A stretch of DNA of 64,000 nt from Thermoanaerobaculia bacterium (GCA_035482045.1 DATHRD010000015.1:14597-78596); one strand, 5' to 3'. Numbered from the stretch's first letter, positions 262 to 61,702 are shown. A program made the numbers and translations. Notes: generated by a model from the sequence alone, not told the origin.

Positions 262-1050
262 ATGAGTTACGTCGTAGGTGAGTGGCTGAATCTCGCCGTC
301 CGCTGGACGCACGTCTTCGCGGCGATCATGTGGGTCGGGCAGACGTATTTCTTCACCTGGCTCGACCACACCTTCCAGGGAGAGAAGCAGGTCTGGATGG
401 TGCACAGCGGCGGTTTCTACATCGTCGACAAACAGAAGCGACCGGAACTGCTGAACCAGACGCTGCACTGGTTCAAATGGGAGGCGTTCTTCACGCTCGT
501 GTCGGGCTTTCTGCTGCTCATCCTCGTCTACTACGGCGGGGGCATCATGGTCGACGAAAGCGTCCTGAAGATCACGGCGTGGCAGGCGGCCGGACTCAGT
601 CTGGTCCTCATCGCGGCCTGCTGGTTCCTGTACGACTTTCTCTGGATCTCGCCGCTGCGAAGGTACGAGGTGGCGGGGACAATCGTCTCGTACCTGCTCC
701 TCGTCGGGGCCATCGTCGGTTCCACGCACCTCTTCTCCTCGCGGGCGGCATATATGCAGATCGGCGCCACGCTCGGCACGTTCATGGCGTTGAACGTCTG
801 GGTGCGCATCCTTCCGGCGCAGCGGCAGCTCATCGCGGCGGTGAAGGCCGGCGGTGAGCCGGACATGCGCCTGGCCGACCTCGCCAAGCAGCGCTCGAAG
901 CAGAACACGTTCATCGTCCTTCCCGTCGTCTTCATCATGATCAGCAGTCACTTCCCCGTCGCCACCTACGGCAGTCAGTACAACTGGCTCGTGCTGGCGG
1001 TGCTCGTGCTGGTGGGGTGGGGTGTAGCGAAGGTCATTCGTACGCGGTAG
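262..1050 (+). CDS. DUF989 / urate-oxidase-N-like polytopic membrane protein (PuuD membrane-domain-like, no cytochrome c domain seen)
   Basis: ORF 154..1050. Hydrophobic protein begins MSYVVGEWLNLAVRWTHVFAAIMWVGQTYFF at internal ATG 262, preceded by GAGGAG. Several predicted TM helices. Sits in a purine-catabolism neighbourhood. Confidence 0.5.
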   Translation: MSYVVGEWLNLAVRWTHVFAAIMWVGQTYFFTWLDHTFQGEKQVWMVHSGGFYIVDKQKRPELLNQTLHWFKWEAFFTLVSGFLLLILVYYGGGIMVDESVLKITAWQAAGLSLVLIAACWFLYDFLWISPLRRYEVAGTIVSYLLLVGAIVGSTHLFSSRAAYMQIGATLGTFMALNVWVRILPAQRQLIAAVKAGGEPDMRLADLAKQRSKQNTFIVLPVVFIMISSHFPVATYGSQYNWLVLAVLVLVGWGVAKVIRTR

Positions 1051-1145
1051 CGCGGTAGCGCGGTCGCGGGGTTGCGCGGTCTCGCGGTTTTCAACACCCG
1101 AGACCCCGAAACCGCGAGACCGCGAAACCGCGAAACCGCACACAG
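1045..1145. repeat. GC-rich palindromic intergenic element of the GCGGTCTCGCGG / CCGCGAGACCGC family
   Basis: gcggtagcgcggtagcgcggtcgcggggttgcgcggtctcgcggtttt...gaaaccgcgagaccgcgaaaccgcgaaaccgc. Inverted arms with internal short direct repeats. Confidence 0.7.
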
Positions 1146-1153
1146 GAGCTCAT

Positions 1154-2482
1154 TTGAAACGCACTCTCTCCGACAACGACATTCGCTCCGCCGCGGCGAA
1201 GCTCGATCCTGCTCTCACCAGATTCATGGCTCGCTTCCCGGAAGACTCAGGAGCCCGGCAGCCGGTGCACACGGTTTATGGCGGGGCACATCTCTTCAAG
1301 AGCGACACGACGCAGAAACTCGGCGTGCTGGCGCTGCGGGCTCTCGATGAGTACGGACCGGACGCGGCCACGCTTGGGAACGCCATCGGGATCGACCCGC
1401 GCTTCCAGGACGTCGTCTACGCGCGCGTCCTGGAGAAGCTCCGCCGCGAACCGGTCGAGGATTTCCGCATCGATTTCGAGGACGGCTACGGCAACCGCGC
1501 CGATGAGGAGGAGGACGGCCACGCCGCCGCTGCCGCGCACGAGGTTGCGGCGGGGATGAAGAACGGAACGCTGCCTCCCTTCATCGGCATTCGCATCAAA
1601 CAGTTCTCTCAGGAGCTGATGCCGCGTTCGATCCGCACGCTCGATATCTTCGTCTCGACGCTGCTCGATGACGCGGGTCTGCTGCCCCCCAACTTTGTCG
1701 TGACTCTGCCGAAGATCCAGTTGCCGCACCAGGTCACGGCGATGGCCGATCTTCTCGACGCCATGGAACCGAAGCTCGGCCTGGCGCATCACGCGCTCCG
1801 CTTCGAGTTCATGATCGAGACGACCCAGGCCATCCTGAGCGAGAACGGCGTCTCCAACCTGCCGCTCTTTCTCGACGCCGCGCGCGGGCGGGCCGTGGCC
1901 GCGCACTTCGGCACGTACGACTACACGGCGAGCTGCAACATCACCGCGGAGCATCAGCGGATGGACCACCCCGCCTGCGACTTCGCCCGCCACATGATGC
2001 AGGTGGCCTACGCTGGGACAGGTCTCTGGTTGTCGGATGGCGCCACGAACATCATGCCGATCGCGCCGCATCGCGTCACGCTCACAGCGCGGCAAATCGA
2101 GGAGAACCGCTCGGTCGTCCACCGCGCCTGGCGATTGCACGCCGATCACATCCGGAACTCGCTCATCAACGCGTACTACCAGGGATGGGACCTCAATCCG
2201 GCGCAGCTTCCGACGCGGTATGCCGCCGTCTACTCGTTTTTCCTGGAAGGCTTGCAGGCGGCCACTGATCGTTTACACAACTTCATCGAAAAGGCTGGCC
2301 AAGCCACCCTCGTCGGCGATGTTTTCGACGATGCCGCCACCGGACAGGGACTGCTCAACTACTTCCTCCGCGCGCTCAACTGCGGCGCCATCACGGAAGA
2401 GGAAGCGCTCGCCACGGGTCTGACTCTCGACGAGCTTCGCAGCCGCAGCTTCGTGAAGATCATGAAGGGGCGGAGGAAATGA
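1154..2482 (+). CDS. HpcH/HpaI/CitE-like aldolase-lyase family protein
   Basis: TTG start with AGGAG 5 nt upstream. Motifs RIDFEDGYG (DxEDA-like metal site) and FEFMIETTQAI (mIET motif) typical of the CitE/HpcH fold. Function in this locus unknown. Confidence 0.5.
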   Translation: MKRTLSDNDIRSAAAKLDPALTRFMARFPEDSGARQPVHTVYGGAHLFKSDTTQKLGVLALRALDEYGPDAATLGNAIGIDPRFQDVVYARVLEKLRREPVEDFRIDFEDGYGNRADEEEDGHAAAAAHEVAAGMKNGTLPPFIGIRIKQFSQELMPRSIRTLDIFVSTLLDDAGLLPPNFVVTLPKIQLPHQVTAMADLLDAMEPKLGLAHHALRFEFMIETTQAILSENGVSNLPLFLDAARGRAVAAHFGTYDYTASCNITAEHQRMDHPACDFARHMMQVAYAGTGLWLSDGATNIMPIAPHRVTLTARQIEENRSVVHRAWRLHADHIRNSLINAYYQGWDLNPAQLPTRYAAVYSFFLEGLQAATDRLHNFIEKAGQATLVGDVFDDAATGQGLLNYFLRALNCGAITEEEALATGLTLDELRSRSFVKIMKGRRK

Positions 2483-2490
2483 CCGCTCGT

Positions 2491-2841
2491 CTAACTTCCT
2501 CGATATGTTGAATATCCGAAGGGGCTGAGAAGCAACGGCACGTGAAAGTGCTGTGCCCCTTCGCTCACAATGAACTCGATCACCACCCGCGGAAAGAAAC
2601 CCTCGGGGTTGTAGGAGCCGGTATCGAACGAGAGCCGATACCTGCCGGCCTCCGGCATTTCGTCAGCGAGTTTCAGCCGTCCGCCGGCGTCCGTCGAACC
2701 GGTCGCGACGATCACCCATCCTTCGCGATCCATCTGGGGCAGGCGTGCTTCGGCCATATATGGACCGTGGCTCAGCGTGACCGCCAGGCCCGCTGCCGGT
2801 AGTCCCTTTGCGGTGTCGAGTACATGAGTCGAGATACCCAT
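2491..2841 (-). CDS. uraH: 5-hydroxyisourate hydrolase (transthyretin-like)
   Basis: MGISTHVLDTAKGLPAAG ... C-terminal YRGS signature. GGAGAC upstream of ATG 2841. Confidence 0.85.
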   Translation of the reverse strand: MGISTHVLDTAKGLPAAGLAVTLSHGPYMAEARLPQMDREGWVIVATGSTDAGGRLKLADEMPEAGRYRLSFDTGSYNPEGFFPRVVIEFIVSEGAQHFHVPLLLSPFGYSTYRGS

Positions 2842-2923
2842 TGTTGTCTCCACTCGGCGGCAAGACGCCGCCGAGCCAGCCGGCGGGACCCTTCGGCTCC
2901 GCTCAGGGCAGGCGCCAGCGCTC

Positions 2924-4411: not shown

Positions 4412-4515
4412 GAACGAACCGAGACGAATGTTGAATGTTGAACGTTGAGTGTTAAATGTTGAATGAAGGTCAGCCACTCAACATTCACCACTGAACATTC
4501 AACATTCAACATTCG
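4405..4515. repeat. imperfect long inverted repeat built from tandem AATGTTG heptamers, AT-rich relative to the rest of the window
   Basis: acgaatgttgaatgttgaacgttgagtgttaaatgttgaatg ... cactcaacattcaccactgaacattcaacattcaacattcgt. Overlaps the 3-prime end of allantoinase and the 5-prime region of the allantoicase fusion gene. Confidence 0.8.
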
Positions 4516-5878
4516 TTCTCCGAACCCACTCCCCAATCGCATTGCCAAGATGCCGCCCATCCTCCCACACCTTGTGGCCACGGACATACGTCGCTCGGAC
4601 GACGCCGGTGAGCGTCTCGCCGGCATACGGCGTGACCTTGTGCCGATGTTGAACGAGCTCCTCTCGAACGACGAAATGCGCATCCGGATCGAAGACGACG
4701 ATGTCGGCGTCGAAGCCGGCGGCCAGCTTTCCTTTGCGGTCGCCGAGTCCTGCCAGCGTTGCCGGGCCGGTCGTCATCAGATGGACAATCTGCTCGAACG
4801 CAATGCCGCGCTTCTTCGCCTCGGTCCAGACAATCGGCAGGCCGAACTGCAGCGAGGCGATTCCGCCCCAGGCCCGCGCGATGTCGACTGCGTCCATCCG
4901 TTTCAGCTCCGGTGTACACGGGGAGTGATCGCTGACGACGGCGGTGAAGAGTCCCTCGCGGAGGCCGCGCCACAGCTCCTCGCGGTTGGCGTGACCGCGG
5001 ATCGGCGGGGCGCACTTGAACTCCGTCGCTCCGTCCGGCACCTGCTCGGCGTCGAAGTAGAGATAATGCGGCGTGGTCTCGGCAGTCAGCGGCCCGTGCG
5101 CGTCGCGGGCGCGGCGAAGCGCATCGAGCCCGTTCGCCGAGGAGAGGTGGACGATGTGGGCATGCGTCCCAGTCTTCCGCGCCAGCGCGTAGACGAGTGC
5201 GATCGCTTCATCCTCGGCTTCGGCGGGACGTGTGGCGAGGTAGCTCGCATACGAACGATCGTGGCCCGCCGGCGCGTGGATGTGCTCCGGCAATTCCGCG
5301 TGGACCAGCAGAGGCGCGCCGGTGTCCCGCAACGCGTTCAATGCCTCTTCCAGTCCGCGAGCATCGAGATGGCCAAACTCCGGCACTCCCGAGTCGACGA
5401 GAAAGCATTTGAAGCCGCACGCTCCGGCTTCGAGCATGGCCCGAAGCTGTCCCGAGTTTCCCGGCACCGCGCCGCCCCACAACGCCACGTCGACGCGACA
5501 CTTCCCATCGAGAGCGCGCACCTTCGTCTCCAGCGCCGCAACGGATGTCGTCGGAGGGATCGAGTTCAAGGGCATATCGACGACCGTGGTCACGCCACCG
5601 GCCGCCGCCGCCCGTGTGGCCGTCTCGAACCCTTCCCATTCCGTCCGCCCCGGCTCGTTGACGTGTACGTGCGAGTCCACGATGCCGGGCATGAGGGTGA
5701 GACCGCCGTAGTCTTCGAACGGGGCTCCCGCGGGGACGTCGTCGAATTCGCTGACGCGCTCGATCACTTGCCCGTTGACGTGAATCGTCGACGGCCGGAT
5801 ACCATGCGGCGTGACGACGCTACGGCTGCGGAGGATCACGTTTCGGATGATAGCGGAGGCAATGTATGTCTCGAACAC
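4499..5878 (-). CDS. allB: allantoinase
   Basis: GIVDSHVHVNEPGRTEWEGFETATRAAAAGGVTTVVDMPLNSIPPTT and WGGAVPGN motifs of cyclic-amidohydrolase allantoinase. Confidence 0.85.
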   Translation of the reverse strand: MFETYIASAIIRNVILRSRSVVTPHGIRPSTIHVNGQVIERVSEFDDVPAGAPFEDYGGLTLMPGIVDSHVHVNEPGRTEWEGFETATRAAAAGGVTTVVDMPLNSIPPTTSVAALETKVRALDGKCRVDVALWGGAVPGNSGQLRAMLEAGACGFKCFLVDSGVPEFGHLDARGLEEALNALRDTGAPLLVHAELPEHIHAPAGHDRSYASYLATRPAEAEDEAIALVYALARKTGTHAHIVHLSSANGLDALRRARDAHGPLTAETTPHYLYFDAEQVPDGATEFKCAPPIRGHANREELWRGLREGLFTAVVSDHSPCTPELKRMDAVDIARAWGGIASLQFGLPIVWTEAKKRGIAFEQIVHLMTTGPATLAGLGDRKGKLAAGFDADIVVFDPDAHFVVREELVQHRHKVTPYAGETLTGVVRATYVRGHKVWEDGRHLGNAIGEWVRRTNVEC

Positions 5879-5912
5879 GCGCGCGGTGGGTGTGTTGACT
5901 TGTCATCCACTC

Positions 5913-10694: not shown

Positions 10695-12164
10695 CTACAC
10701 CCGCGCGAAGCGACGTTCCGCCGCCTCTTCGAACACCTCGTACCAGAACTTCGCCATGATGTTCTCTGCGAGTTGCAGCCTGTAGTCGGCGGAGCCCCGC
10801 ACGTCGCTGATCGGCTTGATCTCGTCGCGGGCGATGCGGCCGGCGTGCTCGAAGGTATCAAGGGTGGCCGTCTTGCCGGCCAGGAAGGCTTCCGTGTGCG
10901 GGAGGCGGATGACGGTAGGGGCGACGCCGCCGTAGGCGATGATGGCGTGGTCGATCCGATCGCCGCTGATTGCCAATCGAATGGCGGCGGTGAAGGCGGA
11001 GATGTCGAGATCCTTGCGTCGCGAGACCTTGTAGAGCTTGAGCGTGTCGCGGACGATGGGGATGCGAACGCTGGTGATGATCTCGTCGGGATGGAGATCG
11101 AACTTCCGGTATCCGAGGTAGAAGCGGTCGATCGGAACGGTGCGAGTGCCGCCGTTCAGCGCGAGGGTGGCGCCGGCGACGAAGAGATAAGGCAACGTGT
11201 CGGCGATTGGAGAGCCGTTGGCGATGTTGCCGACCAGCGTTCCGGCGTTCTTGATCTGAGGTGAGCCGAACACGGCCAGGATGCCCGCCAGCTCGGGGAT
11301 GCGATCGGCGATGAACGTCTCGAAGTCGGCGAGCGTCGCATTCGCGCCGGCGACGATCGCGCCGTCTTCTTCGCGCAACTCGTTGAGCGATGCGATCTTC
11401 GACAGTGACAGCATCGCCGGCGCGGCGAGGTTCCGCTTGTTGACCCAGACGCCGACGTCGGTCCCCCCCTGCACGATCGTGCATCCGGGATGGCCGCGTT
11501 TGAAGGCGATTGCCTCGTCGAGCGTGGCCAGCGCGCAGAAGGAGCCGACCTCCACGGAATCGCTTGCATCCGGAAGATCGGGATAGCGGTCGCGCATCTT
11601 GCTGATCGGCGCGCCGTCGATCGCCAGCGCGGCCTTGATGATCGGCTCGTAGCCGGTGCAGCGGCAGAGGTTTCCGGTCAGCCCGTCACGTACCTGTTTT
11701 TCATCGACCCGGTCACAGCGCTCGAACATTCCGGCCATGGCCATGACGAAGCCGGGCGTGCAGTAGCCGCACTGCGCGCCGTGGCAACGAACCATGGCCT
11801 CCTGAACAGGATGGAGAACGTTTTTACGCGGAGACGCGGAGACGCGGAGGGAGTCCTCTTTTCTCCGCGTCTCCGCGCCTCCGCGTGAAACGGTTTTCGT
11901 TTCGCTCAATCCTTCCACCGTGACGATCGATGATCCATCGAGCTGCGCGAGCGAAAGGATGCAGGCGTTGACCGGACGATAGTCGGCATCGGCCGTGCGC
12001 CGGGTCAATACCGTGCAGGCGCCGCAATCCCCTTCCTCGCAGACGATCTTCGTCCCAGTGGCAGCGACATCCTGTCGAAGATAGTTCGCGAGGGTCTCGA
12101 AGGCGACATCGCCGGCGATGCGATGTTCACGGCCGTTGATGTGGATGAGGATGTGGTCGCGCAC
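10695..12164 (-). CDS. xdhA: xanthine dehydrogenase small subunit (2Fe-2S and FAD-binding)
   Basis: EEGDCGACTV and CGYCTPGFVM ferredoxin motifs followed by an FAD-binding domain. Contains an unusual in-frame palindromic segment (separate feature). Confidence 0.85.
   Translation of the reverse strand: MRDHILIHINGREHRIAGDVAFETLANYLRQDVAATGTKIVCEEGDCGACTVLTRRTADADYRPVNACILSLAQLDGSSIVTVEGLSETKTVSRGGAETRRKEDSLRVSASPRKNVLHPVQEAMVRCHGAQCGYCTPGFVMAMAGMFERCDRVDEKQVRDGLTGNLCRCTGYEPIIKAALAIDGAPISKMRDRYPDLPDASDSVEVGSFCALATLDEAIAFKRGHPGCTIVQGGTDVGVWVNKRNLAAPAMLSLSKIASLNELREEDGAIVAGANATLADFETFIADRIPELAGILAVFGSPQIKNAGTLVGNIANGSPIADTLPYLFVAGATLALNGGTRTVPIDRFYLGYRKFDLHPDEIITSVRIPIVRDTLKLYKVSRRKDLDISAFTAAIRLAISGDRIDHAIIAYGGVAPTVIRLPHTEAFLAGKTATLDTFEHAGRIARDEIKPISDVRGSADYRLQLAENIMAKFWYEVFEEAAERRFARV
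11826..11888. repeat. near-perfect 24-bp-stem hairpin embedded in frame in the xdhA interdomain linker
   Basis: cgcggagacgcggagacgcggaggga gtcctctttt ctccgcgtctccgcgcctccgcg. Encodes the low-complexity segment VSRGGAETRRKEDSLRVSASPRKN. Confidence 0.8.
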
Positions 12165-18853: not shown

Positions 18854-18879
18854 GAGGTAGGTGTTTGAATTCTAGCACG

Positions 18880-19076
18880 CGGTTGCGGGGTCGCGCGGCA
18901 GCGTGATTGCGCGGTCTCGCGGATTCGGTTGCTGAGTCGCTGGGTTACTGAGTTGCTGAGTCTACGGAAGCTGCCCAGCAACCCAGCAACCCCAGCAACC
19001 CAGCAACCCCAGCAATCCAGCAACTCAGCAACTCAGCAACCCAGCACCCCGAGACCGCGCAGCCGCGAGACCGCGT
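18880..19076. repeat. long imperfect inverted repeat made of GTTGCTGAG / CCCAGCAAC short tandem units, flanked by GCGGTCTCGCGG and CGCGAGACCGCG
   Basis: Left arm gcgcggtctcgcggattcggttgctgagtcgctgggttactgagttgctgagtc. Right arm ccagcaacccagcaaccccagcaacccagcaaccccagcaatccagcaactcagcaactcagcaacccagcaccccgagaccgcgcagccgcgagaccgcg. Confidence 0.8.
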
Positions 19077-21040: not shown

Positions 21041-21076
21041 CGGTTCCGCGGTCTCGCAGGTTTCGCGGTCTCGCGG
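21041..21076. repeat. direct repeats of the cgcggtctcgc motif
   Basis: cggttccgcggtctcgcaggtttcgcggtctcgcgg. Confidence 0.6.
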
Positions 21077-21189
21077 TAAGGCGGCACGGACAAGAGTGCC
21101 TGTGCCTGAAAAGAAGGTTGCCGCGCGACGGCGCAACCTCGCGACCTCGTCTGCTATCCTTTGAGCTGTCGCCGTTTCGGAGGATTTCA

Positions 21190-22589: not shown

Positions 22590-22734
22590 GTGGTTGCTGA
22601 GTTGCAAGGTTGCTGGGTCTCTCGGCAGCGCGGTCTCGCAGTAGCGCGGCGGCCACGAGCAGAGACCGCGAGACTTCGAAACCGCGAGACTTCGAGACCC
22701 AGCAACCCAGCAACCCGCATCACAGCAACCCGCA
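22590..22734. repeat. inverted repeat element combining GTTGCTG / CAGCAAC units with GCGGTCTCG / CGAGACCGC cores
   Basis: gttgctgagttgcaaggttgctgggtctc...gcggtctcg ... cgagaccgcgagacttcgaaaccgcgagacttcgagacccagcaacccagcaacccgcatcacagcaacccgcatcacag. Confidence 0.8.
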
Positions 22735-37099: not shown

Positions 37100-37240
37100 T
37101 TACCTGATGTTGGGGGGTGGGGAGTGGGGGTGGGGAGTGGGAGAGGGAGTCGCGGTGGGAAGCTACTGCTCTGAAATCCAACTCCCAACTGCCACTCCCA
37201 CCCCCCACTCCCCACTCCCCACCCCCCACCCCGCGATATC
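37100..37240. repeat. G-rich / C-rich long palindrome of the GGGGTGGGGAGTGG family between mglA-like and eda-like genes
   Basis: ggggggtggggagtgggggtggggagtgggagagggag ... ctcccaactgccactcccaccccccactccccactccccaccccccacccc. Confidence 0.8.
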
Positions 37241-41316: not shown

Positions 41317-41319
41317 GCG

Positions 41320-41414
41320 GTTTTGTGGCTGCGGTCTTGCGGTCGCGGAGTGAAAGGCGGCGCTTCCGCGCAACCTCGCAACCGCGAGACCGCGATGTTA
41401 CACTCCGCGCCGCC
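41320..41414. repeat. GCGGTC / GACCGC palindromic element directly abutting two divergent start codons
   Basis: gcggtcttgcggtcgcgg ... cgcaaccgcgagaccgcg ATG. Left arm abuts the GT4 ATG on the minus strand. Confidence 0.75.
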
Positions 41415-50406: not shown

Positions 50407-50409
50407 GCA

Positions 50410-52325: not shown

Positions 52326-53627
52326 ATGCGCCCTCTTTTTGCAGCCATGGCTCTTATCGCCGCGGGTCTCAGCCCCGCTCTCGCGCAGCCTCTTGTCTGT
52401 CCCCCTGTCGCCTCCGTCGCCGGCCGTGCGTGCGACACGTTTCACTATCACGTGCAGATGTTCAAGCCGGATACCCGCGAGTTCGTCGAGCTTTACGGGG
52501 TCAACCAGTTCGCCTCGATGGCGGCTTGTGAACGTGCCCGCGATGTGCAGTTCAAACGCAACATGGCGGTTGTCGAGTTCTTTCGTGCGCAGAGGAGAGA
52601 CTGGTGGCAGGCCGACAAATTCGGGCAGTGCCATTGCGACATGACCGTCGAACGCGCCAGCCCGAACGCGTTGACGGACGCCGCGCGGGTCCAGCAGATC
52701 CACGACGCGGAAGAGGTTCGGCAACGCGTCCGGGAGCGCCTGCTCGATGCCAGAGTCCCGGCAGACGCAGAGCTGATCCGCGATCTGGCCCCGCCGGTCA
52801 GCACCACACCGCTCATCGGCGGTCCCAAGCTGGTGTCGATGCCGCCTCCGGTTGCGGCCACGACAGTCTCGGGCTCGCCCGACGATCTTCGGATCACGAA
52901 GGCGGTCGATACGACCCCAGCATCGACGACATCGCTCGATCTGCCTCTCGTCGATGTCCCGTTGCCGGGCATCGCGCCGGCCATGGAAACCGCTCCCGCC
53001 ACTACGCCGACGCAAGTGCCGCCGCCCTCCGTGCCGCAGACGTCTGCCCCGGCTCCAGTCAGCAACGCCCCGGCGCAAGCGGTTCCAGCACCGCAGCCCG
53101 CGCAACCTTCGCCAGCCCCCGTCTCCACCGAGCCGTTGGCCATCGTCGACGATCCCGATCTCCCGGCGCCTGAAGATGTCGCAGACGCCTTCGTCAGCTA
53201 TGAGTCGCAGCGTATCCAGAACGTGTTGAAGGTCAGCGGCAGCATCGGCGACGAATCGATCAAGGCTCAGGTGCTCGATGCCTGTACGCAGCGGATCCAA
53301 CTCCTTTCGAACCTTCGCTCGATCATCGTCGGGTCCGGTGCGAAGAGTCGTCTGGTCGCGGCCACGAATGTCGCGAGAAAAGAGAGCGACCGCCTGGCCG
53401 TGGTGGCAAAACTGTTCGGGAGTGACGTGCCGCCGCACTGGGCGCCCAAGGATGCGTCCGATGTGATCTTCGACCCGGGTGTCACGGACCCGGAGCGAGT
53501 GCTCCGCGACAGCTCGTCGTCCGATCAACAGAAACGCCACGCTCTCTACGTTCTGCTGGCGACGACATCGCCGACCGAGCAGCAGCAGATGTGGCTAAAC
53601 TCCGTGATCGAGGCGCTGCTGAAATGA
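52326..53627 (+). CDS. secreted hypothetical protein with Pro/Thr/Ala-rich linker
   Basis: Signal peptide MRPLFAAMALIAAGLSPALAQ. Low-complexity PAPQPAQPSPAP segment. No family recognised. Confidence 0.5.
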   Translation: MRPLFAAMALIAAGLSPALAQPLVCPPVASVAGRACDTFHYHVQMFKPDTREFVELYGVNQFASMAACERARDVQFKRNMAVVEFFRAQRRDWWQADKFGQCHCDMTVERASPNALTDAARVQQIHDAEEVRQRVRERLLDARVPADAELIRDLAPPVSTTPLIGGPKLVSMPPPVAATTVSGSPDDLRITKAVDTTPASTTSLDLPLVDVPLPGIAPAMETAPATTPTQVPPPSVPQTSAPAPVSNAPAQAVPAPQPAQPSPAPVSTEPLAIVDDPDLPAPEDVADAFVSYESQRIQNVLKVSGSIGDESIKAQVLDACTQRIQLLSNLRSIIVGSGAKSRLVAATNVARKESDRLAVVAKLFGSDVPPHWAPKDASDVIFDPGVTDPERVLRDSSSSDQQKRHALYVLLATTSPTEQQQMWLNSVIEALLK

Positions 53628-55423
53628 AACCAGAAACCAGAAACCAAGAACCAGAAACCAGAAACCAGAAACCAGCAAGCGTGCGGCGATCACGATTCTC
53701 ATTTCCGCCTTCTGGTTTCTGGTTTCTGGTTTCTGGTTTCTGCCTTCTGGTTTCTGCCTCCTGCCTTTTCGCGCAGGCGCCGCCAGCTTCGCCCGTTCCG
53801 GCGCAGCCCGCAGGCCCTCCTTCTCAGCCCGCCGCGTCCGCGGCCATGCCTCCGAGCGAAGAGTTCGTGAAGGCGGTTTACTTCGGCGAAAAGTTCGCCG
53901 AGATGAAGGATTACGCAAACGCCTATCAGCAGTTCGCGAAGGCGGACGCGCTGCAGCCCGATGTGCCAGGTGTGCTGTACAACATGGGGGTTCTCCTCGC
54001 CCGCGCCGGCCGCTTCTCGGAGGCACAGGCCAAGGTCGATCGCTACAACCAGCTCTTTCCGGCCGGTGCCGAGAAACCGCTCGTCGCCAAACTGCAACTC
54101 GATCTGGAGTTCGAGCGGGAGCTTCAAAAGAAACGGCAGACGGATGAGGAGTACACCGCCATCTTCACGAGGGGCCGGTTCCTTTACGGCAAGGGTGATC
54201 TTTCAGCCGCGCTCAAGCTGTTCCAGGACGCCGAGCAACAGCGCCCTACCGATCCGGCCGCCGTTTTCAACCAGGGCGTTGTCTATGAAAAGCTCGGGGA
54301 TCTGAACAGAGCGGCGGAGCGCTTTCACCGCTACGAAGAACTGGAGCCCGACGCGAACGCGAAGTCGTCGGCGGATCAGCGCCTGCTCGGTATCGAGAGC
54401 GAGATGTCGGACATGAAGACGAAGATTGTCTGCCCCTTCTGCGGATGGCGGCTGCCGATCGGGTCGATCTGGTGCCCGCACTGCTGGCACGGTCCGTATC
54501 TCACGTCACAATCGCACTGGAATTCGAGGCCGTGTACCGATGGAGCAACGGCGACGCGCGCGACGTATTACGCTGACGGTCGTTTCGCGAAAAACGATTC
54601 ACTGCCTTGTCTCTTCAACGGCATGATGCTCGACGCGCTCCGCTATACGCCTGACCGCCAGCGGCGAGTCCAGGAGACGCGCAAGGCCGAGGGGTGGACG
54701 TACAGCGGAGACCTCATCCAGGGGTGGCATGACCGGCAGGGCAATGAGATTCGTTACGTCCAGGGGGCCGACTACCTCGAAAAGATCGTTTCCCCCAGCG
54801 GCGGAGACCTGCTGCTGTTCAACGCTCACAAAGCGCCTGATGCCGGTATCTGGCTGCTCGATCGGGAGGATGTCGTCATCGACGGTCAGAAGTACACGTC
54901 GCGCTACACCTTCGACGCCCAGAATCGCGTCGCCGAGCAGCAGGTCGTTTATCAGAACGCCGCCGGCTGCAATGACGTCATCACGATGACGGCACTCGCC
55001 ACGTACACGAACGATCTTCTGGCGGGGTTGCAGATCCGCGGAGGTTATACGGGCACTGTCGTTCAGGGCTCGCCGCGCGTCGATTGGGAGGCCAACGTCG
55101 CCTTCTCCTATGACGTCAACGCGCGAGAGACGAAGGAAGAGCTGGCCGTGAGCTCGATGACGAAGACCTACACGGAAAAGCCCTACGGCATGATGCGTCA
55201 GGAAGTGGCCGCGCTCTATCCGGAAATGCGCGTCCGCAAACCGATCGAGAGGATCCTCTATCTCGGCGATCGCTGCGGTGTCTCCGGCACGACAGTCCTC
55301 GGCAATCCCGTCGACCTCCGGCCGTTCTATGCCCTCACTCCGAATCTGGCCGTGGCCATCGCCAGCGGCGTCACCCGTGCGACGGTGAGTTTCACGTATC
55401 CGGACTCGTATAGGGTTCGATAG
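53624..55423 (+). CDS. secreted TPR-containing protein; signal peptide encoded by a (GAAACCA)n / (TGGTTTC)n inverted repeat
   Basis: MKPETRNQEPETRNQKP...FWFLVSGFCLLVSASCLFAQA then TPR-like units. ATGA overlap with the upstream stop. Confidence 0.55.
   Translation: MKPETRNQEPETRNQKPASVRRSRFSFPPSGFWFLVSGFCLLVSASCLFAQAPPASPVPAQPAGPPSQPAASAAMPPSEEFVKAVYFGEKFAEMKDYANAYQQFAKADALQPDVPGVLYNMGVLLARAGRFSEAQAKVDRYNQLFPAGAEKPLVAKLQLDLEFERELQKKRQTDEEYTAIFTRGRFLYGKGDLSAALKLFQDAEQQRPTDPAAVFNQGVVYEKLGDLNRAAERFHRYEELEPDANAKSSADQRLLGIESEMSDMKTKIVCPFCGWRLPIGSIWCPHCWHGPYLTSQSHWNSRPCTDGATATRATYYADGRFAKNDSLPCLFNGMMLDALRYTPDRQRRVQETRKAEGWTYSGDLIQGWHDRQGNEIRYVQGADYLEKIVSPSGGDLLLFNAHKAPDAGIWLLDREDVVIDGQKYTSRYTFDAQNRVAEQQVVYQNAAGCNDVITMTALATYTNDLLAGLQIRGGYTGTVVQGSPRVDWEANVAFSYDVNARETKEELAVSSMTKTYTEKPYGMMRQEVAALYPEMRVRKPIERILYLGDRCGVSGTTVLGNPVDLRPFYALTPNLAVAIASGVTRATVSFTYPDSYRVR
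53625..53765. repeat. inverted repeat composed of tandem GAAACCA heptamers (left arm) and TGGTTTC heptamers (right arm)
   Basis: gaaaccagaaaccagaaaccaagaaccagaaaccagaaaccagaaacc ... ttctggtttctggtttctggtttctgccttctggtttctg. Confidence 0.85.
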
Positions 55424-55446: not shown

Positions 55447-56157
55447 ATGACCTGGTACCGGGAATGGTTCGGTGAGGAGTACCTGGAGCTCTATGCGCAT
55501 CGTGACGAGCACGAGGCCCGGCGGCAGGTCGCGTTCTTCCGCGAGCACTTCACTAAAGTCGACGGCATCATTCTTGACCTGGCCTGCGGTACGGGACGCC
55601 ACCTCGCGGAGATGAACGTGGAGGGCATCGTCGCAGTCGGCTGCGATCTTTCATTCACGCTCCTCCGTGCGGGCATCGACGAACATGGGCTGCTGCCGGT
55701 GGCACGCGCCGACATGCGCTCGTTGCCGTTCTGCAGCAACAGCTTCGGCGGCCTGGTCAACTTCTTCACGAGTTTCGGATACTTCGCGAAGGAAGACGAG
55801 AACCTGCAGGTGGTGCGCGAGATGGCGCGCGTACTGCGCTCCGGCGGCGTTTTCCTCTTCGACTATCTCAATGTCGACCGGGAGCTCGACAAGCTGGTCG
55901 AGCGCGAGACGCTGGATACGCCGAGCGGGCGGGTGGAGATCGAGCGGTGGTTCGACCCCCGTGACCGTTCGTTCAACAAACGGATCACGATCGGTCAAAA
56001 GCGTTACCTTGAGCGCGTTCGCGGATACGATCTCCATGAGATCTCCACGATGTTCACCTCCTCGGAACTGTTGATCCGCGAATCGTTTGGCGACTTTCAC
56101 GGCGCGCCGTTCGACGCCTCGTCGCCTCGTCTCATCCTGGTCGGGAGCAGAAGATGA
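55447..56157 (+). CDS. class I SAM-dependent methyltransferase
   Basis: ILDLACGTGRH motif I. Post-I acidic residue. Motif II LRSGGVFLFD. Confidence 0.75.
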   Translation: MTWYREWFGEEYLELYAHRDEHEARRQVAFFREHFTKVDGIILDLACGTGRHLAEMNVEGIVAVGCDLSFTLLRAGIDEHGLLPVARADMRSLPFCSNSFGGLVNFFTSFGYFAKEDENLQVVREMARVLRSGGVFLFDYLNVDRELDKLVERETLDTPSGRVEIERWFDPRDRSFNKRITIGQKRYLERVRGYDLHEISTMFTSSELLIRESFGDFHGAPFDASSPRLILVGSRR

Positions 56158-57680
56158 TGAGCGGCGCCGCGTTGGAGGCCGCCTGTCTTCGAATTCCGCT
56201 GACGACGTACGGCTTGAACCCATTCACGCTCGACTGGATGGCCGGCCACTCCAGCGCTACGCGGTTCCTTCCACGAAACGCGGCGGGGAGTTCCAGCCCG
56301 ACCGCCCATCCACCCGCCCTCGCGGACGCCCTGATCGCATCCAACCGCCAATGGGGCCGTGACGTCGGCGACGAAGTTCTCCGCTGGTCTCGCGGCGAGA
56401 CCTTCACGGTCATCGCCGGCCAGCAGGTCGGCTTCGCCGGCGGCCCGATCTACACACTGGCCAAGCTCACCGGAATGCTGAAGCTGAAGCGTGAAAACGA
56501 GAAGCGCGGCATTCCGACGACGGTTTTCTTCTGGCTGGCCACCGAAGACCACGACTTCGCGGAGGTGGCCACGCTGGCGTTGCCGAAGCGCGACCCGAAG
56601 CAGCAACTCGACCTCACGACATTTCGCGCGCGGCACCATGAATCGAAAACCGCCGTCGGCGGGCTGCCGGTCCCCGAGGAGCTGACGCGAGCGCTCGTCG
56701 AATACCTGGACATTCCCCGACCGGCATGGCTGCGCGAGGGCATCACCTTCCGGGACTCGTTCGCGGAGCTGATCAGCGAGGCAGTCGATGGCGGCTTCAT
56801 CCTCGTGGACGCGCTCCTTCCTGAGCTGCGCCGCGCCGGCGCGCCGGTGTTCGACGGGATACTCACGAACTGGGACCGCATTCAGCGCGAGCTGGAACTG
56901 CGCGCCGAGGCGCTGCAAAGTGCCGGTTACACGCCGCAGGTCGTGCCCCGTCCCGGCGAGGCGCACACGCTGCTCTTTGAGCTCGATGAGAACGGCCGGC
57001 GCGAGCTGATCGACAAGCCACGGCCGCTGGCCGCGCCGGAGAGGACATCGACTTCCGCGCTGACCCGTCCCCTGCTCCAGGATTCCGTGCTCCGCCCCGA
57101 CCTGTTCGTCGGGGGACCGGCCGAGGTCGCGTATTACGCGCAGATCGCGCCGCTGCACGAGCTACTCGGTATTGCCATGCCCCGCGTCGCGTTGCGCGCG
57201 CACGAGATGCTCGCGCCGAGGCGCATCGTGCGAACCGTTGCGCGCTACGACATCAGGCCCGAGGAGATTTTCGCCGGAGCCGACGCGCTGCTCGCGGCGC
57301 GCGAGCCCTCCGGCGTCGCCGAGGTACGGACCATCGCTCGAAACGCGCGGCACGAGCTCGCCGAACAGATCACCCGAATCGGCGAGATCGCGCTCCCTGC
57401 CGAGCACGCGCTCGCCCGCGCCATCAGCCGGTCCATCGGTCACATCGAGTACCACTTCGACAAACTGGCCGAACGCGCCATCCTCGGACTGGCGCGGAGG
57501 GATCGCGAGCGATATGCCGCCGTCCGCGAACTGGTGACCACGCTCGTTCCCGACGGCGTTGCCCAGGATCGCGTGACCGGCTGGTTCGGTTACTGGCAGG
57601 AGTATGGCCAGCATCTCGTCGGCCGCATGATCGATGAAGCGGAACAGGACGAGGATGTATGCAAGGTGGTGAGTTTGTGA
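56154..57680 (+). CDS. bshC: bacillithiol biosynthesis cysteine-adding enzyme BshC-like
   Basis: VIAGQQVGFAGGPIYTLAK resembles the BshC GQQ.G..GP.YT motif. About 508 aa. Adjacent to bshB and bshA. Confidence 0.6.
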   Translation: MMSGAALEAACLRIPLTTYGLNPFTLDWMAGHSSATRFLPRNAAGSSSPTAHPPALADALIASNRQWGRDVGDEVLRWSRGETFTVIAGQQVGFAGGPIYTLAKLTGMLKLKRENEKRGIPTTVFFWLATEDHDFAEVATLALPKRDPKQQLDLTTFRARHHESKTAVGGLPVPEELTRALVEYLDIPRPAWLREGITFRDSFAELISEAVDGGFILVDALLPELRRAGAPVFDGILTNWDRIQRELELRAEALQSAGYTPQVVPRPGEAHTLLFELDENGRRELIDKPRPLAAPERTSTSALTRPLLQDSVLRPDLFVGGPAEVAYYAQIAPLHELLGIAMPRVALRAHEMLAPRRIVRTVARYDIRPEEIFAGADALLAAREPSGVAEVRTIARNARHELAEQITRIGEIALPAEHALARAISRSIGHIEYHFDKLAERAILGLARRDRERYAAVRELVTTLVPDGVAQDRVTGWFGYWQEYGQHLVGRMIDEAEQDEDVCKVVSL

Positions 57681-58408
57681 TCGATGGACTCGAGCCGGTC
57701 GACCTGATTTTCTTCGGCGCGCATGCCGACGACATCGAGCTTTCGTGTGGCGGCACGATCGCGAAGGGGGTGCAGGACGGGCTGCGCATCGGCATCATCG
57801 AGCTGACGCGCGGCGAGCTGGGGACACGTGGCACGCCGCGGGTCCGCCGGCGCGAGGCGCTCAAGGCAGCGAAGATCCTGGGAGCCCGTTTCCGCGAGCA
57901 TCTCGACTTCGGAGACGGCGGCATGCGCACCGGCCGCGAGGAGGAGCTGCAGGTCATCGAGATCGTCCGCCGCTGCCGGCCGAAGCTCGTCTTCAGCATG
58001 TGGCCCGATGACCGGCATCCGGATCACATTCGAACCGGACGGATCGTCACCGAGGCGTCGTTCTACTCCGGGCTGCGCCAGTTGGAGACCGGCCTTCCCG
58101 CGCACCGGCCGCAGGCGACGATTTACTATCCGCAGAACTATCTCGTCACGCCGAGCTTCGTGGTCGACGTCACGAAGACCTGGAAGACGAAGATGCGCGC
58201 CGTCGCCGCGTTCAAGTCGCAGTTCTACGACCCGAAATCGAAAGAGCCGCCCACGTTCATCGCGGACAAGAAGTTTCTGGAGATGATCGAGGCGCGTGGC
58301 CGCCACTTCGGCGCGCTGATCGGCGTCGAGTTCGGCGAAGCGTTCATGACAAAGCAGCCGCCGAAGGTCGATGACGTGATCGCCGCGTACAGCGGGAGGG
58401 AGCCGTGA
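57656..58408 (+). CDS. bshB: PIG-L/LmbE-family deacetylase (BshB-like)
   Basis: LIFFGAHADDIELSCGGTIAK ... PDDRHPDH zinc-site motifs. Confidence 0.7.
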   Translation, partial: CMQGGEFVIDGLEPVDLIFFGAHADDIELSCGGTIAKGVQDGLRIGIIELTRGELGTRGTPRVRRREALKAAKILGARFREHLDFGDGGMRTGREEELQVIEIVRRCRPKLVFSMWPDDRHPDHIRTGRIVTEASFYSGLRQLETGLPAHRPQATIYYPQNYLVTPSFVVDVTKTWKTKMRAVAAFKSQFYDPKSKEPPTFIADKKFLEMIEARGRHFGALIGVEFGEAFMTKQPPKVDDVIAAYSGREP

Positions 58409-58414
58409 GAGCTG

Positions 58415-58493
58415 TTGCGAAGTGGCGCGGTTGCGGGGTCTCGCGGCGGCCGGCTACCGCGCGACCTCGGAACCGCGAGACTGCGAGACCGCG
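58415..58493. repeat. GCGGTCTCGCGG palindromic element abutting the bshA start codon
   Basis: gcggttgcggggtctcgcgg ... ccgcgagactgcgagaccgcg ATG. Confidence 0.75.
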
Positions 58494-59612
58494 ATGAGAA
58501 TCGGCATCACCTGCTATCCCACATTCGGAGGCTCGGGCGTTGTGGCCACGGAGCTCGGCGTCGCCCTGGCCCGCGGCGGCGACGACGTTCACTTCATAAG
58601 CTACGCCATGCCGTCGCGCCTCAACGTGCTGCACGAGCGCGTCCGCTTTCACGAGGTAACGGTCACGCCGTATCCCCTGTTTGATCCGTACCCGCCCTAC
58701 ACGCTGGCTCTGGCCACGAAGATGGCCGAGGTGGCCGTTTACGAAAAGCTCGACATCCTCCACGTGCACTACGCGATCCCGCACGCCATCAGCGCGCACC
58801 TGGCGCGCGAGATCGTCGGCTCGAAGGACCTTCGCTTCATCACGACGCTGCACGGTACCGACATAACGCTCGTCGGACGCGACGCAAGTTATCTGCCGAT
58901 CACCAGGTTCGGCATCGAGGTGTCCGACGGCGTGACCGCGGTGTCGGAATGGCTTCGAAAAGAGACCGCGAAGAACTTCGCCACCGAGAAGGAAATCGAA
59001 GTCATCCCGAACTTCGTCGATCCGGCCCGATTCCGCAAGCACGACAGCTCTCTCTCGAATCTTTTCTCCTCTTCGGGCGAGAAGCTGCTCTGTCATGTCT
59101 CCAACTTCCGCCCCGTCAAACGGATCATGGACGTGCTCGTGGTGTTCGAGCGCGTGTCGCGCGTGGTGCCCAGTCGTCTGGTGATGATCGGCGACGGCCC
59201 GGACCGTTCCCTCGCGGAGGCCTTCTGCCGCGACCATCACCTGCGCGAGAAAGTCTTTTTCCTCGGCAACGTTCCGAACCTCGAGGAGGTCGTTGGCGCC
59301 GCGGACGTTTTTCTCCTCCCGTCCGAGGCCGAGTCATTCGGTATGGCCGCTCTCGAAGCGATGGCCTCCGAGGTGCCGGTGATCGGCAGCCGTGCCGGCG
59401 GCCTGACCGAAGTCGTCGTGGAGGGAGAGACCGGCTACCTTCTCCCCGTCGGCGACGTCGAAGCGATGGCCGAGCGCGCCATCGAGATCCTCTCGAATCC
59501 CGACCTCCACCGCCGCCTGGGGCGGAATGGGCGGGATCTGGCGGAGGGGAAGTTCAACGTGAATCGTGTGGTGCCGAGGTATCGGGAGTTCTACGAGAGG
59601 GTGATCGGGTAG
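58494..59612 (+). CDS. bshA: GT4 glycosyltransferase BshA-like (N-acetylglucosaminyl-malate synthase)
   Basis: [22 protein letters not shown] is a BshA-type N-terminus. C-terminal E..E GT4 motif. Confidence 0.7.
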
Positions 59613-60543: not shown

Positions 60544-60996
60544 TCACGATCCCTCCTCCCTCGCCAGCGTCCCCGAGAAAACCGCGTGGGGGGCTCGCTT
60601 GAGAATCTCGTTTCGAGCGATGGCGTAGCCAAGGATCGCGTCGACCAGCATGCGCCGCCCGTCGTGGGAGAAGAGGATCAGGACCTTTCGCTTGATCTCG
60701 CGGACTTCGACGATGTCTTCCCAGCGCATCCAACGCCCGCGCTTGCCGAACAGCTTCAGCACCCAGTTCTCGTACATCAGGCCGTCGTCGCTGAGGTAGA
60801 TGTGATCGCCGTACTGCACGGCAGCCGCGGCCAGCGTACCGAGGAAGAGCAGGATGAGGGCCACGATCGGCAGCGCCTCGATCTCCTTTTCACCCTTCGA
60901 CAGATAGTCGAACAGCAATGCCGCAGAGGCAAAGGACGCCGCGCAGGAGATCAGGCGCGCGACCGGCGTGCGGTCGAATTTGAGGATCTGAGACAT
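60544..60996 (-). CDS. small membrane protein with two TM helices and a bacterial-PH-like (DUF304/YdbS-like) C-terminal region
   Basis: TM segments LISCAASFASAALLF and LPIVALILLFLGTLAAAAV. C-terminal YENWVLKLFGKRGRWMRWEDIVEVREIK. Confidence 0.4.
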   Translation of the reverse strand: MSQILKFDRTPVARLISCAASFASAALLFDYLSKGEKEIEALPIVALILLFLGTLAAAAVQYGDHIYLSDDGLMYENWVLKLFGKRGRWMRWEDIVEVREIKRKVLILFSHDGRRMLVDAILGYAIARNEILKRAPHAVFSGTLAREEGS

Positions 60997-61007
60997 GGCG
61001 GGAAAGT

Positions 61008-61095
61008 ATAGGACGCGGTGTGTCGCGGTCTCGGGGTTGCGGGGTTACGAGGTCTCGGGGTTACGAGATCGCGGAGTGGGGGTTGCTGGGTTGCT
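61008..61095. repeat. GCGGTCTCG-family element forming the left flank of a 22-bp tandem array
   Basis: gcggtgtgtcgcggtctcggggttgcggggttacgaggtctcggggttacgagatcgcggagtgggggttgctgggttgc. Confidence 0.7.
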
Positions 61096-61129
61096 TAACG
61101 CGCGCATGGCCGGCGAAGCAGGCGACCGG

Positions 61130-61620
61130 TCAGTCATGGCTGTGAATCCGTCCATTCCAGACCCCGTGACTTGATGTCCCAGACCCCGAGACCTGATGTT
61201 CTGAACCCCGTGGATTGACGTCCCAAACCCCGAGACCTGACGTTCCACACTTCGGGACTCGCGTTCCGTACCCGGGACCTGACGTTCCGCACCCCGGGAC
61301 CTGACGTTCCGCACCCCGGGACCTGAGGTTCCGGACCCCGGGACCTGACGTTCCACACCCCGGGACCTGACGTTCCGGACCCCGAGACCTGACGTTCCGG
61401 ACCCCGAGACCTGACGTTCCGCACCCCGGGACCTGACGTTCCGGGCCCCGAAACCTGACGTTTCACACCCCGGGACCTGACGTTACGGACCCCGAGACCT
61501 GACATTACGCACCCTGGGACCTGACGTACCAAACCCCGAGACCTGACGTACCAAACCCCGAGACCTGACGTTACGGACCCCGAGACCTGACGTTACGGAC
61601 CCCGAGACCCGACGTTCCAC
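61130..61620. repeat. tandem array of about 20 degenerate copies of a 22-bp unit ACCCCGGGACCTGACGTTCCGC
   Basis: Copy variants accccgagacctgacgttccgg, accccgggacctgaggttccgg and others, with period 22. Closed by accgcgagaccgc at about 61620-61632. Confidence 0.85.
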
Positions 61621-61679
61621 ACCGCGAGACCGCATAACCTCGGCCCATGACCCACCTGCCGAAACTGCGCGACCGCGAA

Positions 61680-61702
61680 ACCTCGACTACAATCCCCGCC
61701 CC
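61680..61702 (+). promoter_or_regulatory. possible -10 element (TACAAT) 11 nt upstream of the proS ATG
   Basis: cgactacaatccccgccccATG. No Shine-Dalgarno sequence between the box and the start codon. Confidence 0.3.

Follow-up and report, generated by a model that had tools for sequence, protein, structure and literature searches.

A class of tandem-unit hairpins in the window

The DNA examined here is a 64,000-nucleotide (nt) stretch from a Thermoanaerobaculia bacterium (the window), in which purD, glmS, proS, an xdhA-like gene, the bshC-bshB-bshA cluster, and other genes are interspersed with 11 palindromic elements. These elements total 1835 nt, or ∼30% of the noncoding DNA. Some of them had been described in an earlier reading of the sequence alone (the sequence-only reading) as a dispersed family of palindromes built on the motif GCGGTCTCG. 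Thirteen exact matches to this motif were found on both strands of the window, versus 3.18 expected; a count of 13 or more was reached in 0 of 100 dinucleotide-preserving shuffles, and 17 matches to the 12-mer with no more than one mismatch were found, versus 2.75 expected. In a gene map built from GC3-supported open reading frames (ORFs) and Pfam, noncoding DNA comprises 8.4% of the window, yet it holds 12 of the 13 matches (binomial p = 1.5e-12); the thirteenth, at 29428 within glmS, looks like a chance occurrence. Inverted arms and short tandem units were present at every locus listed in the sequence-only reading, and the refuting condition set in that reading, no enrichment between genes or at gene starts, was not borne out in the window or on soil-metagenome contigs. 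A dispersed, intergenic palindromic family is supported.

The description of this family required revision in several respects. The eight loci originally listed all have inverted arms but correspond to seven elements, with 61008-61095 and 61620-61700 forming the two arms of one composite; region 61008-61100 did not fold by itself (z = -0.8) and is the left arm of this 680-nt structure. The arms are indeed repeated, but the conserved unit is not a fixed 12-mer. Tandem Repeats Finder and an inverted-repeat search resolved the GCGGTCTCG arms into tandem copies of an octamer with the loose consensus G[C/G]GGTNNC and, after these, the tandem complement. The two tandem "extensions" noted for some copies are related unit variants along a gradient. 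Compared with shuffled sequences, predicted RNA folding was strong at 1040-1142 (z = -6.1), 18878-19078 (z = -7.5), and 22588-22734 (z = -6.6), and z was approximately -3 for 21041-21152, 41317-41396, and 58409-58493.

The GCGGTCTCG palindromes are one flavor of a much larger class of tandem-unit hairpins in soil Thermoanaerobaculia (Acidobacteriota) that the sequence-only reading had missed. Hairpins of this class occupy nearly all of the intergenic space that is dispensable. An assembly artifact was rejected as the source of these structures: stretches of 4 to 8.6 kb that include four elements matched an independent assembly, made from another run, at 100% identity, and elements of the same kind are present on complete chromosomes of relatives.

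Census and polarity of the elements in related loci

A BshA search yielded 80 syntenic loci, all from metagenome-assembled genomes (MAGs) of Thermoanaerobaculia/Acidobacteriota, with BshA identities of 71 to 96%; every locus was selected around bshA. Together with the window, these loci formed a data set of 81 sequences and 1.27 Mb, across which period-7 and period-8 arrays are very common. Strict pairing (an array and its reverse complement no more than 250 nt apart) identified 102 pairs, of which 75 had period 7 and 21 had period 8. An independent hairpin finder returned 92 tandem-armed hairpins in 43 of the 81 sequences, with more than 60 different units and a unit period of 7 in 64 hairpins and 8 in 22. 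Under the strict criteria, the shuffled window gave 0 to 1, compared to 6 observed. Element length had a median of 96 nt (range, 36 to 260), and the median ungapped arm was 30 nt. Copies within one family have the unit in common; their loops, lengths, and unit order differ.

The arms have a marked polarity. The 5' arm was G-rich in 78 of 87 elements (p = 7e-15; G:C = 1075:504), compared with a ratio of 100:73 in ordinary hairpins. For individual families, the observed order greatly outnumbered its mirror image: GTTGCTG...CAGCAAC, 19 to 1; GAAGGCA...TGCCTTC, 21 to 2; AGTCCTG...CAGGACT, 15 to 0; and GGTTGGC...GCCAACC, 16 to 1. Because a palindrome is the same on both strands, the G-rich arm follows stop codons and the C-rich arm precedes start codons. 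Stop-codon content was rejected as the cause of this polarity, as the 5' arms exceeded the 3' arms only slightly in stop content.

The distance from the element edge to the upstream stop codon had a median of ∼4 nt, and the first unit itself sometimes provides the stop (1048-1050 and 4499). By junction context, 52 elements were codirectional, 28 divergent, and 7 convergent, versus background values of 490, 160, and 169, a comparison that is inflated by orthologous sites and bshA-centered loci; convergent junctions are depleted (7 of 87 versus 21% of the background). A role as intrinsic terminators was rejected: no T-tract was found 3' of the elements, they are depleted at convergent junctions, and a true terminator at 21001-21040 is separate. 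Stem mismatches at codirectional junctions would be G.U on the transcribed strand in 39 cases and on the other strand in 41. Selection at the RNA level was rejected on the basis of this lack of excess. A scan of the whole window with Rfam 15 covariance models at gathering thresholds gave no match.

Elements of the window and their flanking genes

Seven elements comprise the family detected initially. Hairpin 1043..1139 contains ∼5.8 octamer units (GCGGTAGC, GCGGTCGC, GGGGTTGC, and GCGGTCTC), a 10- to 14-nt loop, and ∼5 complementary units (CGAGACCG and CGAAACCG), with a minimum free energy (MFE) of -66.9 kcal/mol (z = -6.1). Its first unit contains the TAG stop (1048-1050) of the upstream urate-oxidase-like gene, and on its 3' side AGGAG (1144-1148) precedes the TTG start (1154) of a DUF6986 gene. 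The composite hairpin 18878..19076 (MFE, -107.4; z = -7.5) is flanked by two divergent genes, purD (ATG 18853, minus strand) and one for an ECF sigma factor (ATG 19137), and was 100% identical in the independent assembly. Its outer arms are of the GCGGTCTCGCGG type (18878-18922 and 19047-19075), its inner arms are four copies of GTTGCTGA (18927-18961) and nine of CCAGCAAC (18974-19046), and its left arm is abutted by the extended -10 box TGcTAGAAT (minus strand, 18869-18877). Element 21041..21152 (z = -2.8) has the left arm GCGGTTCC GCGGTCTC GCAGGTTTC GCGGTCTC GCGG and a degenerate right arm, CCGCGCGACGGCGCAACCTCGCGACCTCG (21121-21150); the canonical intrinsic terminator at 21001-21040 (ggggcgcggcg...cgccgcgcccc acttttt) stands directly before it. 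The composite hairpin 22590..22734 (z = -6.6; outer arms GTTGCTG and CAGCAAC, inner arms GCGGTCTCGC and GCGAGACC) occupies the entire gap between the convergent stops of a FadL-like gene (ends at 22587) and an M15 peptidase gene (ends at 22735, minus strand). Units of GTTGCTGA are found within 18878-19076 and around 22590-22734.

Hairpin 41317..41394 (GCGGTTTTGTGGCTGCGGTCTTGCGGTCGCGG, loop, CGCGCAACCTCGCAACCGCGAGACCGCG; z = -2.8) has its left edge on the start of a GT4 gene (CAT 41314-41316) and its right edge on the extended -10 box TGtTACACT (41396-41404). Hairpin 58410..58493 (plus strand; MFE, -49.6; z = -3.0) fills the spacer from bshB (stop TGA 58406-58408) to bshA (ATG 58494), and its predicted fold has the stem base 3 nt past the stop codon on one side and 2 nt short of the start codon on the other. 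The composite 61013..61690 consists of a left arm of GSGGTNNC units (61013-61095), an array of 22 copies of the 22-nt unit TTCCGGACCCCGAGACCTGACG (61155-61631), and a right arm (61620-61690), and it is bounded by two -10 boxes placed back to back: TATACT (minus strand, 61005-61010) and TACAAT (61688-61693). The TTCCGGACCCCGAGACCTGACG 22-mer, in the loop of this composite upstream of proS, includes CCGAGACC, a right-arm octamer.

The remaining elements are built of other units. Hairpin 4424..4516 (GAATGTT, 5.7 copies; AACATTC, 5.3 copies; z = -9.7) contributes, in its first units as read on the minus strand, the final codons and TGA stop of an amidohydrolase gene (4499-5878). Hairpin 11814..11898 (minus strand; three copies each of ACGCGGAG and CTCCGCGT; z = -9.2) is in frame within the xdhA-like gene (10695-12164). 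Hairpin 37111..37232 (TGGGGAG or TGGGGGG, ∼5 copies, facing ACTCCCC, ∼7 copies; z = -7.3) separates a divergent small-GTPase-like gene (starts at 37087, minus strand) from a KDPG aldolase gene. Hairpin 53626..53767 (plus strand) has seven copies of GAAACCA and 6.7 of TGGTTTC (z = -11.3).

Start codons and -10 boxes beside the elements

That some members lie directly against start codons was confirmed. The ATG of bshA (58494), with which the conserved BshA N terminus MRIGITCYP begins, directly follows ...gagaccgcg with no Shine-Dalgarno (SD) sequence between them, and the start of the GT4 gene (40258-41316, minus strand; CAT 41314-41316) is directly against gcggtttt. The third case proposed, the Trm112-like gene, was a misassignment. 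Next to the arm is an ATG at 41395, but in a different frame; the true ATG is 20 nt further, at 41415, where both the ORF with a Trm112p domain (PF03966) and an independent gene call (79 amino acids) start. The extended -10 box TGtTACACT (41396-41404) lies 10 nt upstream of this ATG; thus, the apparent "ATG" beside the arm contains the TG of that box. Overall, 36 of 111 flanking genes have their first possible start within 12 nt of an element edge (30 of these 36 are ATG), and 37 more have it at 13 to 40 nt, a gap that leaves room for a -10 box or an SD sequence.

The -10 boxes were read directly off the sequence. Such boxes lie 8 to 15 nt upstream of ATGs at 41396-41417 (TACACT), 61688-61705 (TACAAT), 60994-61010 (TATACT), and 18851-18877 (TAGAAT), and two of the four are preceded by TGn. 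TACAAT is 9 nt before the proS ATG, TATACT is 8 nt before the ATG of the gene divergent from proS, and TGcTAGAAT is 15 nt before the purD ATG. The proS junction was compared in ten related loci (L001-L004, L007-L010, L012, and L077), and its box is kept in the relatives shown. These arrangements suggest that leaderless or very short-leader mRNAs may be common in the lineage. The proposal that the elements serve as 5' leaders by design was not borne out: stop codons and -10 boxes are abutted equally, all junction types are occupied, one element lies inside xdhA, and another codes for part of a signal peptide.

Turnover at the bshB-bshA junction

The bshA gene, encoding a GT4 enzyme, is preceded by bshC and a PIG-L deacetylase gene. 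The bshC-bshB-bshA cluster (bacillithiol synthesis) spans 56154-59612, and bshB and bshA are adjacent in 80 of 80 Thermoanaerobaculia/Acidobacteriota relatives. The bshB-bshA spacer is 12 nt or less in 35 of 81 loci, nearly all with a 4-nt stop/start overlap and GGGAGG within the end of bshB. In 30 of the 81, the junction contains a strongly folding insert of 44 to 190 nt with units that differ by species (GCGGTCTC, GTTGCTGA, TCCTGAG, GGTTCCTC, GGCAGAT, GGTTGGC, GTGGGCA, GCTTAGG, AGTCGCAA, and others). Filled junctions all have an ATG start (30 loci), and overlapping junctions have ATG (20), GTG (11), TTG (3), or CTG (1) (Fisher p = 1.6e-5, with no correction for phylogeny). Unstructured spacers that are short (13 to 58 nt) likewise all have ATG, and so ATG tracks loss of the overlap, not presence of a hairpin. 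The 35 short spacers indicate that ancestral spacers were close to zero. With a 4-nt stop/start overlap as the ancestral state, any addition must touch both codons.

Target-site duplications were looked for at the bshA, proS, TPR, and xdhA sites. At bshB-bshA, the left edge repeatedly has (A/G/T)TGA and the right edge ATGA; the copies often differ, and selection demands exactly such codons. The xdhA element showed no clear target duplication.

Comparison of strains revealed differences in unit number and, at ∼97% identity, an unrelated element at the bshA junction. Strain L202 has an identical BshA protein and flanking DNA that is 96.6 to 97.6% identical to the window. At bshB-bshA, it has a 130-nt GTTGCTG-type element compared to the 85-nt GCGGTCTC-type element of the window, with only the first ∼13 nt in common. 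L202 also has exactly two octamer units fewer at 61013-61095 and fewer 22-mers in 61155-61631, and L204, a contig from the same sample, has a one-unit difference in a 21-mer array. Element 41317-41394 showed a 1-nt difference, in the loop, relative to a strain that is 95.6% identical overall. Turnover is therefore episodic, with slippage and occasional wholesale replacement, and is faster than point substitution. As a separate observation, a HicB-like antitoxin gene lies downstream of bshA in L202 (4589-4795), and none was called there on the source contig of the window (L201).

Orthologous sites at proS, the TPR protein gene, and xdhA

The interval between the -10 boxes at the proS junction measures ∼12 nt in L008 and L012, 20 nt in L001, and 680 nt in the window. 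GGGGAGT-type units are nested within GCGGT-type remnants in L004 and L010, and large inserts occupy the loop in L077 and L009. New material is seen at the center of older palindromes, as in the nested composites of the window (18878-19076 and 22590-22734).

At the second site, translation of the right arm of 53626-53767 yields the hydrophobic core of a TPR protein's signal peptide. The likely start codon of this gene is GTG 53681, which lies in the loop, in frame with ATG 53624; the latter overlaps the upstream TGA. A one-unit slip within this element would shift the reading frame. The orthologous junctions represent a graded series: no array in L077; a coding (TTCTGCC)n array alone in L006, L007, and L011; a short complementary left arm in L010; and four-unit left arms in L004, L002, L003, and L051. 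In the window and L001, both arms have changed together to GAAACCA and TGGTTTC, and the signal peptide has changed likewise. Growth of the left arm in situ is visible in this series, and the arm arose in place as an inverted copy of an existing repeat.

The element within the xdhA-like gene (11814-11898) encodes ∼24 extra residues between two [2Fe-2S] domains. In comparison with Rhodobacter capsulatus XDH (2w3r_A), residues 88-115 of the XdhA query face only four residues (83-86).

Distribution among lineages and in soil metagenomes

The number of arrays per locus is overdispersed (mean, 4.8; variance, 18.5), with zero arrays in 8 loci versus 0.43 expected. In array-free loci L008, L012, L014, and L015, BshA is 90 to 92% identical to that of the window. 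The 12 to 21 kb of syntenic DNA examined in each of these four and in L031, L037, L049, and L080 contained no arrays of period 7 or 8, and other loci have 8 to 17. Element abundance looks like an on/off trait at the level of lineages.

A soil-metagenome scan with the pattern GGTCTCGCGG-N3-33-CCGCGAGACC matched at least 120 stretches. Among the matches listed, about half by eye were tandem-octamer-armed elements on soil contigs with a GC content of 0.60 to 0.68, and the remainder were chance palindromes within ORFs of higher-GC contigs; automatic classification was too strict (31 of 123 family-like), and these numbers are qualitative only. Family members begin 0 to 15 nt after stop codons and are followed by a direct ATG (L136, L182, L199, and L200), a -10 box ∼9 nt before the ATG (L086, L109, L118, and L195), or an SD sequence and ATG (L183). 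Many show a unit gradient, GGTTGCTG to GGTTGCGG to GGTCTCGG to GGTCTCGC.

Other repeats and genes in the window

A separate family resembling MITEs (miniature inverted-repeat transposable elements) consists of long nontandem palindromes with termini CTGTCATCCTGAG...CTCAGGATGACAG. Its members lie at 5908-6159 and 50249-50407 in the window and upstream of bshA in L058. The two window copies are alike over their full length, and the gap between convergent genes occupied by 50249-50407 measures only ∼44 nt in L002 and ∼22 nt in L006. Direct arrays include 15.5 copies of the 21-nt unit CCCAGAGTCGAAGTTTTGACT at 39876-40201, between convergent cyclase and GT4 genes. This unit contains a small AGTC...GACT palindrome, and the array has one extra unit in the strain that is 95.6% identical. 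A 21-nt unit is repeated 9.6 times at 15185-15407, between permease and amidohydrolase genes, and a 46-nt unit is repeated three times at 42861-43002, where it covers the end of a Wzy_C gene as well as the beginning of an ECF sigma gene. Gene calls on the source contig place a HepT-like/nucleotidyltransferase (MNT) toxin-antitoxin pair (16865-17089 and 17199-17552, minus strand) in the interval from the amidohydrolase gene to purD.

Origin and maintenance of the elements

We propose, with roughly even confidence, that the elements are simple-sequence repeats with long units in palindromic arrangement, that slippage and strand-switching drive their growth and turnover at the DNA level, and that they have no dedicated function. 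Each consists of tandem units of 7 to 8 nt, a short unique loop, and the tandem reverse complement, with the G-rich version 5'. Replication slippage would alter the number of units. One arm may be copied onto the other, with new units added centrally, through either strand-switching (copying by fold-back) or repair at the tip. Occasional templated repair or recombination from other copies could spread a unit type to further loci and may replace a whole element. Elements would then persist wherever no essential signal is destroyed. Spare intergenic DNA is scarce in this genome (overlapping stop and start codons; -10 boxes 8 to 15 nt from the ATG), which would explain why elements end flush against those signals. 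When transcribed, the elements would necessarily fold as long RNA hairpins; at operon junctions such as bshB-bshA, the fold is predicted to bring the stop codon next to the start codon at the stem base and probably lets downstream translation continue.

Several observations argue for this proposal. Balanced G.U mismatches (39 versus 41) point to the DNA level and not the RNA level. The two-unit difference in L202 and the one-unit difference in L204 point to slippage. Also in its favor are the generality of the construction (102 strict pairs and more than 60 units), the stepwise rise of a left arm at the TPR junction, the nesting of newer units at palindrome centers, turnover that outpaces point substitution, and ancestral spacers near zero. 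Occurrence at all junction types, next to a terminator, and in the interior of xdhA, together with the existence of clades that lack elements, suggests that the elements are tolerated rather than functional.

Other observations weigh against it. One octamer type is shared by 7 loci in 64 kb and by many metagenome contigs; this dispersal requires spread between loci or strong convergence, and local slippage alone is insufficient. The G-rich-5' polarity is not predicted by slippage and strand-switching. Element 41317-41394 is more conserved between strains than its own flanks, and orthologous elements of the GAAGGCA series persist across species with 75 to 95% BshA identity; both could indicate selection. 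Finally, divergent junctions, which contain starts, are enriched (28 of 87 elements versus 20% of the background), although orthologous sites are counted repeatedly here and the loci are bshA centered.

Enrichment at start-containing junctions is also what would be expected if the elements were functional RNA hairpins that punctuate or couple cistrons, either by keeping stop and start codons together or through cleavage at the stem base, with genes that lack an SD sequence being reinitiated or leaderless. We regard this explanation as possible but unlikely. The bshB-bshA spacer is a single predicted stem with its base 2 to 3 nt from TGA and ATG, and the uniform ATG of the 30 filled junctions, as opposed to the mixed starts of overlapping ones, would fit such a role; however, the unstructured spacers of 13 to 58 nt are uniformly ATG as well. 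One flanking start in three is found no more than 12 nt from an element, with ATG in 30 of 36, and three element-adjacent genes have leaderless-type promoters (-10 box 8 to 10 nt from the ATG) conserved across species. Coupling would not account for elements at convergent junctions, within xdhA, or after a terminator, nor for the many related genomes that do without them, and the transcribed strand shows no G.U excess.

Nonautonomous mobile elements, related to MITEs or to repetitive extragenic palindromic (REP) elements and REPINs and recognized as hairpins by a transposase encoded elsewhere, would account for the dispersal of one unit type to 7 loci in 64 kb and many contigs. Yet the copies have in common only a degenerate 8-nt unit, with differing loops, lengths, and unit order, whereas copies of the true MITE-like family of this window resemble each other along their full length. 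The left and right edges often repeat (A)TGA, but this apparent target duplication is what selection on overlapping stop/start codons demands, and its copies often differ (GTGA left, ATGA right). Orthologous sites that are filled or empty, different families at one site, lineage-specific abundance, whole-element replacement between strains, and the in-frame xdhA insertion (compare Rickettsia palindromic elements) are all compatible with mobility; growth of the left arm in situ at the TPR junction weighs against it. In addition, a Pfam scan of the ∼55 called genes of the window found no RAYT, transposase, integrase, or reverse transcriptase, and neither GTAG nor CGTC was found within 8 nt of the end in 76 of 90 elements, with GTAG present only as the octamer variant GCGGTAGC. 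On balance, mobility is doubtful, and the "REP-like" label of the sequence-only reading does not hold in the sense of membership, given also a median length of 96 nt and loops not common to copies.

A bolder alternative is active, enzyme-driven writing, in which G-rich units of 7 to 8 nt would be synthesized at a DNA end or hairpin tip and copied by fold-back, whole elements would be rewritten within strain-level divergence, and the resulting hairpins would be co-opted for SD-less or leaderless genes across operon junctions. End synthesis of G-rich units with fold-back copying would explain the fixed G-rich-5' polarity; even so, we consider this scenario quite improbable. Last, arrays of protein-binding sites or G-quadruplex/i-motif structures that affect DNA topology or transcription are very improbable: the 7- to 8-nt periodicity, the G-rich 5' arm, the placement where -35 regions of divergent promoters would be, and the in vitro G-quadruplexes of Xanthomonas GGGAATC repeats (PMC4692102) are consistent with them, but more than 60 unrelated units would require as many proteins, most units lack G-runs (GAATGTT, AGTCCTG, and GAAACCA), and the unit is swapped between strains while flanking genes are unchanged.

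Consequences for genomes and annotation

The elements make up ∼30% of the noncoding DNA of the window and are the fastest-changing part of otherwise syntenic and conserved chromosomes in an abundant, uncultured soil group. They occupy the usual promoter and ribosome-binding positions in organisms that seemingly rely heavily on leaderless-type and coupled translation, and they change proteins, as in the 24-residue xdhA insertion and the remodeled signal peptide. ORFs cross C-rich arms and start codons may fall in loops, so that gene callers can be misled. The elements might also be used as strain-typing markers. A system of many families with strict polarity, intermediate stages, and strain replacement offers a comparative handle on the overrepresentation of heptamers in some bacteria.

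Comparison with known repeat systems

Rickettsia palindromic elements are conserved sequences of 100 to 150 nt that can sit in frame within protein-coding genes. The xdhA element (11814-11898) is similar in being an in-frame palindrome in a coding gene, but the elements described here are tandem-unit arrays, with only one in-frame case. The STRR heptamers of cyanobacteria, attributed to Mazel (1990), are reportedly tandem heptamers and almost all intergenic. The TAACTGA heptamers of Beggiatoaceae and cyanobacteria are also tandem and almost all intergenic, and their largest class ends 1 nt upstream of the start codon (MacGregor 2015, PMC4679880). Those are direct arrays in a fixed orientation to the gene, with only one inverted case reported, whereas inverted pairing is the rule here.

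REP elements measure 20 to 40 nt, bear GTAG or CGTC as a tag, show conservation along their full length, and are linked to RAYT genes (PMC3733652; PMC3116915). In common with REP, BIME, and REPIN sequences, the elements described here are abundant intergenic GC-rich palindromes in species-specific families, sometimes within genes, that would form RNA hairpins if transcribed. They differ in their median length of 96 nt, tandem-unit arms, absence of a tag, unconserved loops, and lack of a RAYT among the window genes. Membership in the REP group was rejected on the basis of length, terminal tag, and whole-length conservation. MITE membership was rejected as well: copies are not alike over their full length and have only the degenerate unit in common, in contrast to the CTGTCATCCTGAG palindromes (5908-6159 and 50249-50407), which are alike throughout. 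In a limited literature search, we found no description of multifamily diversity of 7- and 8-nt units per genome, nesting, strain-level replacement, coding overlap, or occurrence in this lineage.

The closest published analogue is the inverted GGGAATC heptamer repeats of Xanthomonas. These are ∼90% intergenic and near ORF ends, with 70 to 75 convergent inverted pairs per genome that are capable of forming stem-loops (Rehm et al. 2015, PMC4692102). Downstream of ORFs the G-rich version is carried by the coding strand and upstream of them by the noncoding strand, and length and sequence vary between close strains while neighboring genes are conserved (PMC4692102). The polarity rule found here is the same. 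The two systems are alike in their tandem ∼7-nt units, strain-variable copy number, convergent G-rich-first arrays, and intergenic location near ORF ends. In Xanthomonas, however, one unit with a G-run, studied for its ability to form G-quadruplexes, dominates, whereas more than 60 units of 7 and 8 nt, mostly without GGG runs and in several families per genome, are found here. The elements of this lineage additionally form nested composites, are replaced at the strain level, overlap coding sequence, and abut start codons and -10 boxes.

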